Shown here: positions 9,747 through 62,860 of the stretch, piece by piece
Numbering within the stretch: position 1 is the stretch's first letter
Layout: the number at the start of each line of letters is the position of its first letter
Origin: an uncultured Methanolobus sp.
Lineage (GTDB): Archaea > Halobacteriota > Methanosarcinia > Methanosarcinales > Methanosarcinaceae
Length of the DNA: 64,000 nucleotides
NCBI GenBank assembly: GCA_963675495.1
Contig: OY776215.1
Location: 1,856,001 to 1,920,000, forward strand
Direction of reading: 5' to 3'
Notes under the pieces: model-generated
Seen by the model: the letters and a program-made list of their open reading frames with translations, nothing else
Database searches by the model: none
What the model was told of the DNA's origin: nothing
Translations under genes and position numbers: made by a program

Positions 9747-10226
9747 ATGGAATATTACATTGCAGATTCTGCGGTCTTCATAATGGGGGCCGGAGTTGAA
9801 CCACACAGGATGATAACTATACCATCGGTTGTCAATGAACTCAAAAGTAATGAAGCATCCATGCGTTTTGAGCTCGCTCGTGAAAGCGGGGCACGTGTGG
9901 AAATGCCGGAGGATGGTTTTCGAAAGACTGTCCTGGACATAGCAAACAAGACAAGGGACTGTGAAGAATTATCGGCAACTGATATTGATATCCTTGCCAA
10001 GGCCCTTGAATATAAGGAGAATTCAGTCCTCTTAACAGATGACTATGCAGTCCAGAACGTTGCCAGGGTTTTGGGTATAGGGGTAAAGCCGGTAGCCCAG
10101 AAAAAGATAAAGGATGTGCTGGTGTGGCAAAAGGAATGTGTAGGTTGTCGCAGACGTTTTGATAGTGGTGAAGTATGTCCGGTTTGTGGTTCTGCACTTA
10201 AGAAAAAGCGTAAAAGAAAAATATAA
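9747..10226 (+). CDS. nob1: Nob1-family PIN rRNA maturation endonuclease
   Basis: IADSAVFI, LSATDIDILA, LLTDDYAVQNVA, C-terminal CxxC...CPVCG Zn ribbon. Confidence 0.92.
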   Translation: MEYYIADSAVFIMGAGVEPHRMITIPSVVNELKSNEASMRFELARESGARVEMPEDGFRKTVLDIANKTRDCEELSATDIDILAKALEYKENSVLLTDDYAVQNVARVLGIGVKPVAQKKIKDVLVWQKECVGCRRRFDSGEVCPVCGSALKKKRKRKI

Positions 10227-54303: not shown

Positions 54304-54345
54304 ATGTGGAAAAGTATATATTCAACTCGACATGTACTCTTAATT

Positions 54346-54900
54346 ATGAGTACTCTCGATAACAATGATTCCGAGAATCCAGAAAATATGGACCGATTGA
54401 AACTTTTTAGTGCACTTGGAAGTGAAACCAGACTAAGAATGTTACAACAGCTTACTGAGGGTGAAATGCATATATCTGAACTTGCAAGGATGCTAAGTAT
54501 TTCTGTTCCGGTTGCTGCAAAGCATGCAAATATACTTGAAGCCGCTGACCTCATACAGCGTAAGGTGTATGGTAAAACCCATGTTTTACAATTGAATAAT
54601 AAGAACATTTTCCATGCATTGGATATATTTGCACCTTCCAGAACGGTTGAAGTGGAAAAGGGCGCAACACTTCTGCAAGCACTTAAAAAGGCTGCAGTAG
54701 TGGAAGTGAAGAACGTTCACGGACAGGATAACATTGTTTCCACAAATGGTGAAGAAGGTTTCTTTATATATGAGGTGGATGGTGAATTCTCTGAACAGAA
54801 TGTCAATGACTATAAATTTGACAAAGAAGGAACAGTCATGTGGAAGAAGCTGGAACCAATAAGCATCTTAAAGGTGAATGTCAAATTCAAAAAGGAATGA
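54346..54900 (+). CDS. ArsR-family HTH regulator with C-terminal DUF4430/transcobalamin-like domain
   Basis: LFSALGSETRLRML..MHISELARML..VAAKHANILEAADLI; C-terminal GATLLQAL...IVSTNG..GFFIYEVDGE..VNDY..V.W. Confidence 0.8.
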   Translation: MSTLDNNDSENPENMDRLKLFSALGSETRLRMLQQLTEGEMHISELARMLSISVPVAAKHANILEAADLIQRKVYGKTHVLQLNNKNIFHALDIFAPSRTVEVEKGATLLQALKKAAVVEVKNVHGQDNIVSTNGEEGFFIYEVDGEFSEQNVNDYKFDKEGTVMWKKLEPISILKVNVKFKKE

Positions 54901-55023
54901 TATTTTTTTAGTAGTCAGGAACCATCAAATTCATTATTTTTTTGGTCCCTTATTTTTCTTTTTTTCTTTTGAAATCCATTGTCAGCTCCTTTTTCAGTGG
55001 TGAGATGTCCATCTACATGCTTT

Positions 55024-55072
55024 GGTGAATACTTTCACCCTGCTTGCCAGTGGCTTATATCTGCATCTGGCA
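55024..55072 (+). promoter_or_regulatory. Promoter of the radical SAM-DUF4130-MutS5 operon with two inverted repeats
   Basis: GGTGAA-N4-TTCACC (55024-55039); TGCCAG...CTGGCA (55045-55072) bracketing TTATAT (55055-55060). Confidence 0.5.
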
Positions 55073-55084
55073 TATTGTCTATTA

Positions 55085-56227
55085 ATGATTCCCAGAAATC
55101 CTGTTAATGAGCACCATATGACGCTTATGGAAAGGATGAGACTGCTGTCTGAAGGTACCAAATATGATAGTTGCAACCAGAGTGCAGTCTGCCATGCTTT
55201 CGGACCCGATGGTCGTTGCATACAACTCTACAAGACTTTGATGACAAATTCATGTTCAGGGGAGTGCACATATTGTCCGAACAGGTGTGGCAGGGATTCT
55301 GTGCGTGCATCATTAAGCCCGGAAGAAATCGTAAAGATCACATGGTCTTTCTACCGAAGAAATGCAATAGAAGGCCTGTTCCTGTCCTCTGGTGTGATAG
55401 GGGATTCCGAAAGGACGGCAGAGAAGCAATTAGATGTTGCAAGACTTCTGAGAGGGCAGGGATTTACCGGTTATATCCATATTCGAGTAATGCCAGGTAC
55501 TCCAAAATATTTGCTTGAGGAAATTGCTGATTATGCAAATAAGTTCGGCGTGAATGCAGAAACTACAAACTCACTTAATTATTCGGAAATATGCCCGAAT
55601 TTTGATTATCAAAATGATGTACTCCAGCGTTTACAATGGACACGGGATCTTATTAATAAAAAAAGACGAGAGCCAGGTTCCAGGAGTCGGATAATTGGTG
55701 CCAATGATACTCAGTTTGTGGTTGGAGCCCTGCAGGAATCTGACAGGGAGATAATCGGAACTGTTGAGAAGTTCATGGACAGATACGAATTGAGAAGGCC
55801 TTACTTTATGAGCTTCGACCCGGTTCCATTCACTCCTCTTGAAAACAATGAGCCTTCTCCCCAGTGGAGAGAAGCAAGATTATATCAGACTTCCTATCTT
55901 TTGAAGGACTATGGTATGAGTGCCAATGACCTGGATTCTGTTCTTGACGATAATGGCTTTCTTTGCGATACAGATCCTAAAATGCTCCTTGCATCGTGTC
56001 GTCCTGATATGTTTCCAGTGGACGTAAATTCTGCAAGCAGGAACGAATTGCTCACTGTGCCTGGGATTGGTCCTGTGGGGGCCAACAGGATAATTCAGTC
56101 AAGGCCTATAGCATCGGAAAAGGAACTTGCGCGCATGGGTGTTGTTCTTGGTCGTGCACGTCCGTTCATTGAAATAAACGGGAAAAAACAGACAAACTTA
56201 TTCTCGTTTACGGGGGTGGGTGCATGA
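55085..56227 (+). CDS. Putative DNA modification/repair radical SAM protein with HhH (TIGR03916-like)
   Basis: TKYD..C, CHAFGPDGRC, CxxxCxxC (CSGECTYC), IEGLFLSSGV, GYIH, REARLYQ, FPVDVN.AS..ELL.VPGIG. Confidence 0.9.
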   Translation: MIPRNPVNEHHMTLMERMRLLSEGTKYDSCNQSAVCHAFGPDGRCIQLYKTLMTNSCSGECTYCPNRCGRDSVRASLSPEEIVKITWSFYRRNAIEGLFLSSGVIGDSERTAEKQLDVARLLRGQGFTGYIHIRVMPGTPKYLLEEIADYANKFGVNAETTNSLNYSEICPNFDYQNDVLQRLQWTRDLINKKRREPGSRSRIIGANDTQFVVGALQESDREIIGTVEKFMDRYELRRPYFMSFDPVPFTPLENNEPSPQWREARLYQTSYLLKDYGMSANDLDSVLDDNGFLCDTDPKMLLASCRPDMFPVDVNSASRNELLTVPGIGPVGANRIIQSRPIASEKELARMGVVLGRARPFIEINGKKQTNLFSFTGVGA

Positions 56228-57069
56228 TAGTGGCCTTCAGGGAAAATGTAGAAGGTGTTTTGCTTGCCTGTGATGCGCTCTTAGGTAATCCGGATTGTGA
56301 TCTCATTTCCGCAAAGGACAGAGATGGGCTGAAACAAAAGATGGAGTTTACAGGAGTTGATGAAGTGAAAACTCTGGGATTCAGATGTATGGTAGATACA
56401 ACAAAGCTTGTATGCAACATATTTGGAAAACGGGGTTCAAGAATGTTTCAGCGTGATCCGGATGTTGAAGGGTACATAGCAATGGTATTGAGACATCGAA
56501 GCTCGCGACCGATCGAACTGGTACATTTTCTGTGTTCTTGTGAGGGGAATGCCGAACTTCTTTATTCAGGTAAGAGCAGCACGGGTAAAAAATATTACAA
56601 TTACATGCGGGATGTAAGTCGTTCATATCATCGTTTGTGCATGTTTGCACGGCCTGCTTTTGTTAATGGGGTGTTGTCTGTCAAAATAGAGTCATCACAT
56701 CAGATAGGAGATCTCTTCTGTCGCTGGCTTTCAAGGAAAAACCCCGACCTTCCTGTTTCGGTAATAGAGGGGGACATTGCCTGGATAGGAAATGGCGCTC
56801 ATGTAGGCCTTGAACACTTCACAAAGGTGCCTTCTTCATTGGCAGGTAGCCTTGAGTTTACCAATGAACGTGATGAGGTTGATGATCTGTGGGATATGTA
56901 CTACGATTCTCAGATGATTCACAACCGGAGAAATAAAAGCCATGCCAAGCAGCTGCAACCAAAGGCTTCTGCATCCATGAGCAAGATGTCGGAAAGGGAC
57001 CGGTACAAGGTTGAAAAAGGTATTGCGAACTGCACCCTGGATTCTTTTGCGTCTGAGTTGGAGGTATAA
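56224..57069 (+). CDS. DUF4130 / TIGR03915-like DNA metabolism protein
   Basis: DVSRSYHRLCMFAR, IESSHQI, DDLWDMYYDSQMIHNRRN; ATGA overlap with the radical SAM gene. Confidence 0.8.
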   Translation: MIVAFRENVEGVLLACDALLGNPDCDLISAKDRDGLKQKMEFTGVDEVKTLGFRCMVDTTKLVCNIFGKRGSRMFQRDPDVEGYIAMVLRHRSSRPIELVHFLCSCEGNAELLYSGKSSTGKKYYNYMRDVSRSYHRLCMFARPAFVNGVLSVKIESSHQIGDLFCRWLSRKNPDLPVSVIEGDIAWIGNGAHVGLEHFTKVPSSLAGSLEFTNERDEVDDLWDMYYDSQMIHNRRNKSHAKQLQPKASASMSKMSERDRYKVEKGIANCTLDSFASELEV

Positions 57070-59183
57070 TGTTAGCTGATGTCAGGACTTTACAGGATAT
57101 TCCTCGCATAGGGGACAAAATGTCGAAACGTTTTGTAGAGCATTTCGGTAGTGAAAATCAGGCACTTGACGTTATACTTGCCGGTGATATCGCCAGTATT
57201 TCCGAGGTAGAGGGTATTGGTCAACGTTATGCGATCTCTCTTATACAGGATGTAGCTTCCAGAGTTGAAGGAGTTAATGTCTCTGATTTTTTGAGAACCA
57301 AGGAGGCAATGGATGTCTATGAAAAATTGCTTGACCTAGTAAAGGAATTTGCTCATACCCGATATTCCAAAGATAAACTACATGTTTTTTTCCCGTATCC
57401 TTCTAGCAAGATCCAAAAGATAATGCAGGTCCGTGAATCAGTTTCGTATTACATGGAAACTGCCAATCTGCTTGAGGGGGATGGGACTATTGTTGACTTG
57501 TTGTCAAAAGCCACACAGTTAAATTTTAAACACCAGTGCCCCAAGATTCGCGACAGGGTTATCATAACATCTGACCATGATAGTTACGAGTATGCAAGAA
57601 AACGGTTTGCAGGATTGGTTGATGTAAACTTTGCACGTTCCCTTTCTGAATTCATAGATGTTTCAAGGGGTTTCTCTCAGGTTATTGCTGTGGGAGATGA
57701 TTACCTGTCATTTGATCTTCCAGAAGATGTGGACCCTGAATTCTATTCTGACTTACAGGAAATAGATGATTTCAAGGTTATACCTGAAAAAGAAATAGTG
57801 GCATTTTCCCGCAATCTCAAATCGATAGAATCTTCTATTAAAGTGATAAGGTTGCTCCGTTCCAGGGGAATTAGTTTCTTTGACAGCATGGATGATGATA
57901 AACTTGAGTTGCTTGCTTCTACATTGGCTCTTATAGACGAGAGTGGTGATATTGTCTATGGGACTGATGAGGAAGTGGACCGAATTTCGGATGCAAAAGA
58001 CAAGCTTAGTTCTACTGTTACAGAAACTGTACGTATTGTAAATGATGGTCTGAACTCCTGTCTGGAAAATAGTCAGATGACACTCAGTGGACAGGATATG
58101 CTGAAAGTGATGAATGGTTCCATTGAGCTGAAAGAGATACTTGGAAAGAAGCTGCACAAAAGTTATTACTCCATTGTTAAAGAAGGTGCGGACAGAATAT
58201 GCAATGAACTTCAGCTTGAGAAAAAGGAAAGATTGATGGTCGATTCCTTTTTCCCGGAAGAGATTATGCATCCTGTGGAAGCAAATGTTGATAATCTTAA
58301 TGCTTTGAAACAGCACCTGAATAAAAAGGCCCTGAAAAGAAAATTCGATCATAAGCGTGAAGTCTCACGCATATTGTCTTCCTACAAAACAATTGTTCGG
58401 GAAATGGTTCGCGAAGTACTTGATTTTGATGTGGGATTTGCAATCGGTTCTTTTGCTCTTGCATATGATCTTGTTATGCCTACAATTATAGATGGTACAG
58501 GCATTGGTTTTAATGGTGGAAGGAACCTGTTTTTGCTTTCCAGACATGGTGATGTGGTACCAATTGACTATTCAGTGGGTGAGAACGGTTTCAGTCCTAA
58601 AAGTGAGGCCAGCAGGGTCGTACTTTTGAGTGGCGTCAATTCAGGAGGTAAAACCTCCCTTCTGGAACTTCTTGCCCAGAGCAGTATCCTTGCCCAGATG
58701 GGATTTCCTGTTCCTGCACAGCATATGGAACTATCTCTTACTGAGTCGATGTACTACTTTGCTAAATCAAAAGGTACATTAGATGCAGGTGCATTTGAAA
58801 CGACCCTTACTGAGTTCTCTGTGGTAGCTGATGATTCTGCAAAATTTGTATTGGCAGATGAGCTTGAATCCATCACAGAGCCTGGAGCTTCTGCAAAGAT
58901 CATGGCTGGAATACTTGAAGTTTTAACCGAGAATGAAAGCACTATGTCTATATTTGTGTCACATCTTTCAGAGCAGATAGTGGAGAATACTACCTGTGAT
59001 ATCAGGGTTGATGGGATAGAGGCAAGCGGGCTGGATGCCGAGCTTAATTTAATAGTTGACAGGAGTCCCCGTTATAATTATGTTGCAAAAAGCACCCCTG
59101 AACTGATTGTAGAGAGGCTATCAAAAAAGACAGGCGGAAAAGAACAGGCTTTCTATGATAAATTAAGGAGTAAGTTTCAGTAG
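57069..59183 (+). CDS. mutS5: Archaeal MutS5 (MutS2-like) ATPase with N-terminal HhH
   Basis: HhH LQDIPRIG / SEVEGIG; SGVNSGGKT; GTLDAGAFETTL; LADELESITEPGA; FVSHL; no mismatch-binding or Smr domain; TAATG overlap with the DUF4130 gene. Confidence 0.88.
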   Translation: MLADVRTLQDIPRIGDKMSKRFVEHFGSENQALDVILAGDIASISEVEGIGQRYAISLIQDVASRVEGVNVSDFLRTKEAMDVYEKLLDLVKEFAHTRYSKDKLHVFFPYPSSKIQKIMQVRESVSYYMETANLLEGDGTIVDLLSKATQLNFKHQCPKIRDRVIITSDHDSYEYARKRFAGLVDVNFARSLSEFIDVSRGFSQVIAVGDDYLSFDLPEDVDPEFYSDLQEIDDFKVIPEKEIVAFSRNLKSIESSIKVIRLLRSRGISFFDSMDDDKLELLASTLALIDESGDIVYGTDEEVDRISDAKDKLSSTVTETVRIVNDGLNSCLENSQMTLSGQDMLKVMNGSIELKEILGKKLHKSYYSIVKEGADRICNELQLEKKERLMVDSFFPEEIMHPVEANVDNLNALKQHLNKKALKRKFDHKREVSRILSSYKTIVREMVREVLDFDVGFAIGSFALAYDLVMPTIIDGTGIGFNGGRNLFLLSRHGDVVPIDYSVGENGFSPKSEASRVVLLSGVNSGGKTSLLELLAQSSILAQMGFPVPAQHMELSLTESMYYFAKSKGTLDAGAFETTLTEFSVVADDSAKFVLADELESITEPGASAKIMAGILEVLTENESTMSIFVSHLSEQIVENTTCDIRVDGIEASGLDAELNLIVDRSPRYNYVAKSTPELIVERLSKKTGGKEQAFYDKLRSKFQ

Positions 59184-61663: not shown

Positions 61664-62860
61664 ATGATGCGAAATATCAAAGTCGAACACCTGATAGAAA
61701 CGCCGGTGGAAAAACAGCAGATTGAACTTGTGGAGAGAAAAGGTGTGGGTCACCCTGATAGTATCTCCGACGGTCTTGCAGAGGCAGTAAGCCGCGCATT
61801 GTGCAAGGAATATGTAGATAAATGTGGTGTAGTTCTCCACCACAATACTGATGAGACCCAGATCGTGGCAGGAAGGTCAAACCCTCAGTTCGGTGGCGGA
61901 GAGGTTACTCAGCCTATATACACTTTGCTTGTGGGAAGAGCAACCAAGGAATTTGAAGGCGTGGAGATTCCGGCAGAGTCTGTTGCATTAGCTGCTGCGA
62001 GAAACTATATCAGAAACACAATTGTTGATATTGACCTTGAGAGGGATATCATTGTTGACTGCAAGCTCGGGACAGGTTCATCTGATCTCAGGGATGTTTT
62101 CCAGAGAGACAGGGTTCCTGTGGCAAATGATACTTCTTTTGGTGTTGGGCATGCTCCATTTTCAGAACTTGAACAGATCGTATATGAGTCTGAAAGAAAG
62201 CTGGTCACTGACCTGAAAAAGAAAATACCTGGTATTGGAACAGACATTAAGGTCATGGGTCTTAGGGAGAATGACGATATAAACCTGACAATATGCTGTG
62301 GTATGGTTGGAAGATATGTTGATGACATGGATCACTACATCAATATCAAGGAAGAGATGGCTGATTATGTTACTGATCTGGCACTCAAACGTACGGATCG
62401 TAAGGTTAAGACCTTCATCAATGCAGCGGATAATGTGGAATGTAAGTCAGTGTTCCTGACTGTGACAGGTACTTCTGCTGAAATGGGTGATGATGGTTCA
62501 GTGGGTCGTGGTAACCGTTGTAACGGACTCATTACTCCAAACAGGCCAATGAGTATGGAGGCGACCAGTGGTAAGAACCCTATCAACCATATTGGTAAGA
62601 TCTACAACCTTCTTTCCACCCAGATGGCAAAGGATATTGTGAAGGCTGTCCCTGATGTCCAGGATGTCTACATCAAGCTTCTTTCACAGATCGGTCAGCC
62701 AATAGACCAGCCACTTGTAGCAAGCGCGCAGATCATTCCTGACGATGGTGCAAACTTTGCTTCCATAAGGGCGGAAACAGAGGTTGTCATGGATGAGTGG
62801 CTTGCTGATATCACCAGAATAACCAAGATGGTCATAAACGGCGAACTGGATACTTTCTGA
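61664..62860 (+). CDS. mat: S-adenosylmethionine synthetase (archaeal type)
   Basis: [50 protein letters not shown]. Confidence 0.97.

Follow-up and report, generated by a model that had tools for sequence, protein, structure and literature searches.

An operon joining a radical-SAM/DUF4130 pair to a MutS5-type ATPase in Methanolobus carries a promoter-proximal element shared with DNA-repair genes

The DNA analysed here is a 64,000-nt stretch of the genome of an uncultured Methanolobus sp. (GenBank assembly GCA_963675495.1, contig OY776215.1, positions 1,856,001 to 1,920,000 of the forward strand), hereafter referred to as the window. It contains three genes encoding, in this order, a radical S-adenosylmethionine (SAM) protein with a helix-hairpin-helix (HhH) region (hereafter rSAM), a DUF4130 protein and a MutS5-type ATPase (Table 1), the nearest proteins being those of Methanolobus. 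These genes form a real and tightly spaced operon, preceded by a 20-nt element that is also found before uvrA, radA, recQ, hef, SSB/RPA-like and topoisomerase IA genes, and the operon is therefore assigned to a DNA-repair regulon. We consider it to be a co-regulated DNA-repair operon with one promoter, in a regulon marked by a damage-response-like element, rather than a set of genes for an obligate complex (probability of about 0.6). A sequence-only reading of the same DNA had proposed a role in DNA repair, for which the element common to uvrA, radA, recQ and hef provides independent support. It had also proposed a three-part machine, against which the distribution of the genes argues.

Results

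The operon and its promoter-proximal element

The three genes lie on the plus strand, and the overlaps described in the sequence-only reading were confirmed, with coordinates and both junctions matching the sequence: the rSAM stop codon TGA overlaps the DUF4130 ATG (ATGA, 56224-56227), and the DUF4130 stop codon TAA has one base in common with the MutS5 ATG (TAATG, 57067-57071). The rSAM gene has two candidate start codons, ATG 55085 and TTG 55022, the former being preferred because of the position of the TATA-like box. An oligo-T stretch directly downstream from the neighbouring ArsR/SmtB-type helix-turn-helix (HTH) gene (54304-54900) resembles archaeal oligo-T terminators and would therefore mark the 5' boundary of the operon. 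No run of at least five T was found on the plus strand between positions 54995 and 57286, and thus no oligo-T-terminator-like signal lies between the three genes.

Alignment of 11 spacers between the HTH and rSAM genes, from at least five genera, revealed a sole conserved block, GAATACTTTCACCCCGCTTGG, followed by a TATA-like TTATATA sequence. The element of the operon studied here is AATACTTTCACCCTGCTTGC; its ACTTTC hexamer, at 55031-55036, occupies positions -54 to -49 relative to ATG 55085. The spacing of the TATA-like box fits a leaderless or near-leaderless transcript, with the transcription start predicted from the sequence, and the three genes would most likely be transcribed together from a single promoter carrying AATACTTTCACCCTGCTTGC. 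The corresponding spacer of Methanohalobium, between the HTH gene and MutS5, lacks the element.

The element recurs in this genome more often than expected by chance. An 11-mer of the element was found 12 times, versus three times for the reversed control, and a 17-mer core was found four, eight and 10 times with no, at most one and at most two mismatches, respectively, versus 0, 0 and 0-1 times for four 17-mer controls. All of the 17-mer sites with at most two mismatches are intergenic, each with a TATA-like box at an equal distance, and at most of them an open reading frame (ORF) begins 48-100 nt past the element. According to Pfam matches, the genes behind these sites encode topoisomerase IA, a GyrI-like protein, UvrA, a nucleoside deoxyribosyltransferase-like protein, an SSB/RPA-like protein, RecQ, Hef and RadA, together with the operon described here. 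A weaker site precedes an XseA gene, and others are followed by the gene of a small Toprim protein and by three short ORFs without family assignment. The sites elsewhere in the genome, outside the window, are on its single contig (C1 of G000, 2.87 Mb), at positions 708296, 1090533, 1091730, 1194374, 1237772, 1418152, 1461107, 2006310, 1120095, 2243604, 2478408, 1752029, 856435 and 510751.

Some of these sites deserve separate mention. The perfect copy at 1752029 (minus strand) has no clear downstream gene; an Orc1/Cdc6 gene (1748867-1749826) is about 2 kb away, and the site may belong to a replication-origin region. A 29-aa ORF (2243475-2243564) and a 50-aa ORF of a Methanosarcina-like genome (L176 of G193) are both preceded by the element, in two genera, and have LVERAxxYEQFE in common. 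The Pfam match of a 72-aa ORF (15.9 bits) was below the threshold and was taken as a chance match.

Table 1. Genes and sequence features of the operon region, with their positions in the window.
Feature	Position	Strand	Evidence or remark
Oligo-T stretch, five runs of at least 5 T	54903..54994	+	directly 3' of the ArsR/SmtB-type HTH gene
Conserved 20-nt promoter-proximal element	55028..55047	+	alignment of 11 triad loci
TATA-like box TTATAT	55055..55060	+	27 nt after element start, 30 nt before ATG 55085
rSAM/HhH gene, 380 aa, TIGR03916-like	55085..56227	+	profile matches and motifs
CxxxCxxC radical-SAM cluster motif (C57, C61, C64)	55253..55276	+	invariant in 10/10 aligned homologues
HhH DNA-binding region of rSAM, residues 312-349	56018..56131	+	HHH_3 and HHH matches; VPGIGP invariant
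PIP-box-like rSAM tail QTNLFSF, residues 369-375	56189..56209	+	Q369 nearly invariant, L372 invariant
DUF4130 gene, 281 aa	56224..57069	+	PF13566; start overlaps rSAM stop
PIP-box-like DUF4130 tail CTLDSF, residues 270-275	57031..57048	+	L272 invariant, F275 nearly invariant
MutS5-type ATPase gene, 704 aa	57069..59183	+	MutS_V, motifs, model
HhH2 region of MutS5 N terminus, residues 6-60	57084..57248	+	HHH_5 25.2 bits, E 2.3e-5; helices in model
Walker A GVNSGGKT of MutS5, residues 522-529	58632..58655	+	invariant in 24/24 aligned MutS5 proteins

Resemblance to the Orc1-2 element of Sulfolobus

According to the available part of Sun et al. 2018 (PMC6061795), the promoters induced by damage in Saccharolobus islandicus have AATAGTTTCRGWDTACTCWS in common, with an ANTTTC hexamer at -23 to -55 from the ATG, and this element coincides with the Orc1-2 footprint and is required for induction. 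As far as that text allows a comparison, both elements are non-palindromic, begin with AATANTTTCR and lie just 5' of the core promoter; their first ten bases agree at 9/10 positions, and the hexamer of the element described here falls within the -23 to -55 interval. The element is also, as in Sulfolobus, common to a gene set beyond chance (10 occurrences versus 0-1). The 3' halves differ, however, with CCCTGCTTGG here versus GWDTACTCWS, and the Sulfolobus promoters tested in the same source were those of upsA, upsE, tfb3 and cedA1, whereas bona fide repair genes (uvrA, radA, recQ and hef) are concerned here. By analogy with the Orc1-2 element, the regulon is probably damage-responsive. An Orc1/Cdc6 paralogue with the element 55-75 nt upstream was found in two distant lineages, a Methanocella-like genome (L142, G009) and a genome of family f5 (L154, G219), and is, as a putative binding factor, a candidate autoregulated regulator.

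The element in other genomes

A degenerate core of the element exceeded the reversed control in this genus, in families f12 (Methanocella-like) and f5 (families are numbered as in our survey) and in some haloarchaea; in a Methanohalobium-like genome, both counts were 0. The element precedes the genes for RadA, UvrA, RecQ and an SSB-like protein in the Methanosarcina-like genome G193, those for Hef, an SSB-like protein and ribonucleotide reductase in a haloarchaeon (G131), and those for the Orc1/Cdc6 paralogue, an XPD-like helicase and MutS5 in the Methanocella-like G009. In G219, it is found before the Orc1/Cdc6 paralogue, an SSB-like gene, a stand-alone rSAM gene, a TnpB-like gene and a RhuM gene.

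For counts at individual genes, a position weight matrix was built from 12 sites of this genome, and a locus was considered positive if it scored at least 15 within -200 to +60 of the gene start. The element precedes the rSAM gene in 35/35 loci with sequence in which the three genes are adjacent (hereafter triad loci) and, elsewhere, in f4 (2/3), f5 (2/3), f26 (1/2), f27 (1/1) and f32 (1/1); it was not detected before this gene in f12 (0/3), f6 (0/4), f13 (0/2), f17 (0/3) or f14, f15 and f16 together (0/3). Across families, these counts identify the rSAM gene as a recurrent member of the element-bearing set. The element also precedes MutS5 in all eight Methanocella(-like) loci. Two lineages have thus brought MutS5 under the element, each in its own way: Methanocella through a promoter of the gene itself, the methylotrophic Methanosarcinaceae through operon fusion. 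The single MutS5 locus of f13 was negative (0/1), and only a partial element was found 5' of PolB in Methanocella-like loci (2/3). In haloarchaea of several genera (G186, G201, G060, G211 and G168), the element is located just past the 3' end of MutS5 and points towards it, an orientation suggesting that a small convergent gene is under its control.

Querying the literature with 9-mers from the element brought up only primer sequences. In searches that left most subscription journals outside their reach, we found no paper on this element in methanogens or haloarchaea, and none linking MutS5 to the rSAM/DUF4130 pair.

Distribution of the three genes and of their order

We surveyed 301 genomes, drawn evenly and all from the one phylum (Halobacteriota), and found relatives of MutS5 in 160, of rSAM in 98 and of DUF4130 in 41. 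The DUF4130 gene adjoins an rSAM gene in each of the 41 genomes in which it occurs: 24 of f1, including this one, all 15 of f12 and both of genus g13 of f4. These 41 genomes also hold MutS5. The other 57 rSAM relatives (35-47% identity) have no DUF4130 partner, and the four of them that were scanned scored 154-213 bits with TIGR03916. By coordinate comparison, rSAM and MutS5 are neighbours on the same strand, separated by about 850-960 nt, in only the 24 f1 genomes. In f12 (15/15), all three genes are present, with MutS5 apart from the pair, on another contig or hundreds of kb away (10.6 kb in the nearest case), and the genes are likewise separate in f4-g13 (2/2). The three-gene order was therefore found in one family only.

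The 80 named loci nearest in a scan with a MutS5 alignment (Methanosarcinaceae, Methanoperedens and Methanocella) were also compared. The triad was present in 31, from Methanolobus, Methanococcoides, Methanomethylovorans, Methanohalophilus, Methanosalsum and further Methanosarcinaceae, and MutS5 was alone in 44 (flanks of up to 10 kb on each side), from Methanosarcina, Methanoperedens, Methanocella and Methanohalobium; five were too short for a call. In a FastTree phylogeny of the MutS5 proteins from these loci, two changes of state are sufficient to account for triad adjacency: one between the Methanosarcina clade and the remainder, and a loss in Methanohalobium, whose sequences branch within the triad-bearing part of the tree. 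On this phylogeny, the operon fusion arose once, in the methylotrophic Methanosarcinaceae. In Methanohalobium and in G034, where the pair is missing, MutS5 comes next after the HTH gene and is itself followed by the same his genes; rSAM and DUF4130 thus make up a two-gene module separable from MutS5, and MutS5 is independent of them.

The overlap of rSAM and DUF4130 is conserved in 30/31 named triad loci. The DUF4130-MutS5 spacer ranges from -19 to +44 nt in the 31 loci, with an overlap in 10 and a distance of no more than 30 nt in 28 (start codons assigned by rule). Nearly all triad loci have syntenic flanks; three (L035, L036 and L039) retain the triad with different flanks. In the window, the operon is followed by the convergent hisB, hisA and hisG genes and then by an archaeal SAM synthetase gene (61664-62860), 2.5 kb 3' of the operon, the position of which reflects family-wide synteny and is kept even where the rSAM/DUF4130 pair is missing.

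The DUF4130 gene of L008 (G001) contains a single in-frame TAG, at about 10180-10200 on the minus strand, in a genus that keeps the triad; possible explanations are a pseudogene, an error in the sequence and read-through in a pyrrolysine-using methanogen. In L078 (Methanohalophilus profundi), DUF4130 and hisB are each split into two alignment pieces and assembly frameshifts are therefore the probable cause.

Outside triad loci, the neighbours of MutS5 vary with lineage, with a hydrolase and a polyphosphate kinase gene in one Methanosarcina-like genome. In Methanocella(-like) loci, a gene for an MrfA/Hrq1-like helicase (DEAD, WHD_HRQ1 and MrfA Zn-binding domains) lies 0-6.5 kb 5' of MutS5 on the same strand (L014, 5648-10363; L016, L018, L088, L096, L100 and L102), and in the Methanocella-like L015 (6317-10721), L017 and L018 the pair is found 42 nt to 3.4 kb 3' of the gene for the family B DNA polymerase, with which it shares its strand. 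No conserved third gene follows DUF4130 elsewhere: the 242-aa ORF of L015 and the 238-aa ORF of L022 are unrelated and have no Pfam match.

Features of the encoded proteins

The motifs previously reported for the rSAM protein (CHAFGPDGRC, C57xxxC61xxC64 and a C-terminal HhH) are all present. The protein matched PF04055 with 32.7 bits (cut-off 29.5) and HHH_3 with 26.8 bits (cut-off 27). With TIGR03916, it scored 286.8 bits (E 3.2e-85, profile positions 32-382 of 415), short of the 343.5 required for an equivalog; it is thus a clear relative of this family, outside the equivalog threshold. Other copies scored 291.3 (Methanocella-like) and 338.1 bits (f4-g13). The identification of the second protein as a DUF4130 member held for PF13566 (36.1 bits, cut-off 27) and failed for TIGR03915 (29 bits, cut-off 112.25). 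A model of this protein (predicted local distance difference test score, pLDDT, of 76.4) gave weak matches to DHH/DHHA1 proteins, including the PAP phosphatase 8a8k_A (E 1.1e-4, template modelling score 0.39) and RecJ (E 4e-3), and the accessible part of a preprint (bioRxiv 10.64898/2026.08.19.745780) likewise reports a DHH/DHHA1-like fold for DUF4130. No DHH triplet was seen on reading of the sequence. We favour an explanation in which the modelled DUF4130 protein would be a catalytically decayed DHH/RecJ-like fold. The same preprint, as far as available, reports an AlphaFold 3 heterodimer of the bacterial rSAM and DUF4130 proteins. An alignment-based search for long fused DUF4130 forms (502-2000 aa) found none, which is weak evidence.

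Both subunits of the pair end in a peptide resembling the PCNA-interacting peptide (PIP) box. In the six genera in which the rSAM tails were compared, the consensus is Q[TA]NLxxF; QTNLFSF has the Q, L and F of the pattern Qxx[LIM]xx[FYW][FYW] and lacks the second aromatic residue. The DUF4130 tail, C[TRK]L[DG]xF, is kept across genera and lacks the Q. The two tails resemble that of FEN1 from the same genome (QSTLDKWF). A PIP-box-like peptide at the end of each subunit could thus serve as a PCNA tether, and the rSAM/DUF4130 module may be tethered to PCNA. The pair is probably a conserved two-protein module acting on DNA.

These two families also occur together in bacterial SOS operons of TIGR03916 and TIGR03915/DUF4130 genes (COG4277 with COG1573), often with a UdgX-type uracil-DNA glycosylase (UDG) domain. 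Adjacency, translational coupling and an rSAM protein with CxxxCxxC and a C-terminal HhH are common to the bacterial and archaeal pairs, and the bacterial pair belongs to LexA/DNA-damage regulons according to the available portions of two articles (PMC8565304, PMC3765255). The proteins described here differ in falling below the NCBIfam equivalog cut-offs (286.8 versus 343.5 and 29 versus 112), in having PIP-like tails, in the addition of MutS5, and in a promoter element of archaeal kind, without LexA. The linkage or fusion to a UDG that might have been expected from bacteria was not found here: a Pfam search detected no UDG domain in the three operon proteins, no UDG gene is adjacent, and the PF03167 matches of this genome are at C1:2492761 and C1:197175, with a UDG gene about 580 kb from the operon. 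Spore photoproduct lyase (SPL; SplB), a radical-SAM enzyme acting directly on a DNA lesion, provides a likeness in working principle only, although the name "SplB-like" is used for the TIGR03916 family by Aravind and co-workers, in the part of their article at hand (PMC3765255). The SPL family models gave no match to the operon proteins at E <= 0.01, and the radical-SAM enzyme described here, unlike SplB, needs a DUF4130 partner.

The third protein proved, as proposed, to be a MutS-type ATPase with an N-terminal HhH (MutS_V, 34.6 bits, cut-off 30.2; HHH_5, 25.2 bits, cut-off 27) and to lack mismatch-recognition and Smr domains, MutS_I and Smr giving no match at E <= 0.01. Its Walker B motif, DELE, is invariant in 24/24 aligned proteins, and its AlphaFold2 model (pLDDT 85.7) matches MutS and MutS2 cores over 450-700 columns. 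The C terminus is a short helical tail with an invariant FYxxLxxKF, which does not fit the PIP pattern. The designation MutS5 is based on this architecture and on the description by Lin, Nei and Ma (2007), whereas database sources call the relatives "MutS2" or "MutS-related". Other archaeal MutS5 proteins (Lin, Nei and Ma 2007; those of Pyrococcus furiosus and P. horikoshii; MutS5a and MutS5b of Haloferax volcanii) are likewise MutS ATPases without mismatch-recognition or Smr domains; the gene described here differs from the characterised ones in ending an operon with a radical-SAM pair. Published MutS5 proteins have ATPase activity and bind DNA non-specifically, and the P. furiosus protein binds DNA, according to the accessible text of PMC2190696; Holliday-junction binding is attributed to Ohshita 2017 in the part of PMC11276520 available to us. 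Archaeal MutS5 proteins are given as lying outside mismatch repair (PMC7776575). A complex prediction for MutS5 and DUF4130 reached at best a score of 0.31, versus a mark of 0.32, in a run without controls, and counts neither for nor against binding.

Discussion

The data presented here favour a co-regulated DNA-repair operon, in which the link between MutS5 and the pair would be co-regulation in one response. The radical chemistry predicted for the rSAM protein would consist of an SPL-like direct reversal of a lesion or of a base modification. Several observations weigh against the interpretation as a co-regulated operon. The matrix used to score the element was trained on this genome's own sites. 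The element is missing before 15 of the 25 rSAM genes examined outside triad loci, and in 3/3 Methanocella-like loci the pair has no element or a weak one (best score 7.2). It was not found before MutS5 in the Methanosarcina clade (0/28), the Methanoperedens clade with f2 and f3 (0/18), Methanohalobium (0/2), f4 (0/2) or the haloarchaea (0/19); only two lineages thus have MutS5 downstream of the element. In G219, the element also lies 5' of genes of a TnpB-like protein (L157; OrfB_IS605 / Cas12f1-like TNB) and of the RhuM family (L159). Finally, the element-bearing Orc1/Cdc6 paralogue scores higher against Orc1-1-type structures (2v1u_A, 139.8 bits) than against A. pernix ORC2 (68.8), and its orthologue in this genome (G000:C1:2177858-2178958) has a degenerate copy of the element only.

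In an alternative view, the element would mark a replication-linked, cell-cycle-linked or constitutive class of promoters for DNA-metabolism genes, with no damage response. The presence in the gene set of topoisomerase IA, SSB/RPA-like protein, ribonucleotide reductase and an Orc1/Cdc6 paralogue that is closer to the initiator types is consistent with such a class, as are the site about 2 kb from an Orc1/Cdc6 gene and the absence of clear induction of Sulfolobus repair genes after ultraviolet irradiation, as stated in the available part of PMC2246294. However, most of the element-bearing members are repair genes rather than replication genes, the first ten bases match those of the damage-responsive Sulfolobus element at nine positions (PMC6061795, in the part at hand), and LexA controls the bacterial homologues of the pair according to the accessible section of PMC8565304. 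We therefore regard a promoter class of this kind as unlikely, while giving it real weight. A quite different function for MutS5, the ATP-dependent reactivation or chaperoning of the radical enzyme, is brought to mind by KamC, a MutS-like ATPase that reactivates lysine 5,6-aminomutase, since NF052383 (KamC) is the best NCBIfam match of the third protein (86.3 bits, residues 375-655). This score is far under the cut-off of 300, and the match spans the shared lever and ATPase region only; KamC identity was rejected on these grounds. Furthermore, MutS5 has an HhH2 DNA-binding head, is widespread without an adjoining radical enzyme and, in P. furiosus, binds DNA (PMC2190696, available text), and a reactivase role is very hard to credit.

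The remaining alternatives concern the meaning of the gene order. In the three-part machine of the sequence-only reading, MutS5 stands in for the UdgX-type glycosylase, scanning DNA or loading on it for the rSAM enzyme, as an obligate partner. The tight spacing across genera, the intact triads of L035, L036 and L039 despite the difference in both flanks, the presence of MutS5 in all DUF4130 genomes, and the occurrence of MutS5 and the rSAM gene, each under the same element, in separate lineages are all in keeping with such a machine. Nevertheless, descent accounts for the co-occurrence, since MutS5 is present in all sampled genomes of f1-f4 and f12; it is also far more widespread than DUF4130 (160 versus 41 genomes). 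Adjacency, confined to 24 of the 41 DUF4130 genomes and to one family, is a single evolutionary event on a tree with two changes; 17 of the 41 genomes hold the three genes apart, and Methanohalobium keeps MutS5 at the same site without the pair. No fusion was found, and the other operons of the pair have no common third gene. Within the sampled phylum, MutS5 thus adjoins the pair in this lineage only, and an obligate machine seems decidedly improbable. The opposite extreme is that the pair landed 5' of MutS5 once and persists there in a stable syntenic block (HTH gene, triad, hisB-hisA-hisG, metK) with no shared pathway. The single event, the synteny of the flanks in nearly all triad loci and the lineage-specific neighbours of MutS5 (MrfA-like helicase; hydrolase and polyphosphate kinase) are compatible with neutral neighbours. 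The spacer has, however, shrunk to between -19 and +44 nt, the triad outlives the loss of both flanks in three loci, and MutS5 has its own copy of the element in 8/8 Methanocella(-like) loci, such that its being under the element is not peculiar to the fusion. Mere neighbourhood is accordingly judged improbable too, if somewhat less so than an obligate machine.

A broader extension of the co-regulated operon can be put forward tentatively, and we would hold it to be possible rather than probable: the Halobacteriota may have an SOS-like regulon, in which a pre-TATA element (AATACTTTCACC..GC), akin to the Orc1-2 element of Sulfolobus, would drive uvrA, radA, recQ, hef and rpa/ssb-like genes, with rSAM as an old member and MutS5 joining twice, and the triad would be a damage-induced unit. 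A PCNA-tethered rSAM/DUF4130 enzyme and a branched-DNA ATPase would then act at the same stalled forks.

As a single lineage-specific event, the gene order carries little information by itself. The shared element, by contrast, puts both families beside uvrA, radA, recQ and hef, and thus provides a testable handle on their function. Control by this element parallels the LexA control of the bacterial pair, and suggests that the Orc1-2-type damage response, described so far in Sulfolobales only, has a euryarchaeal counterpart controlling repair genes.

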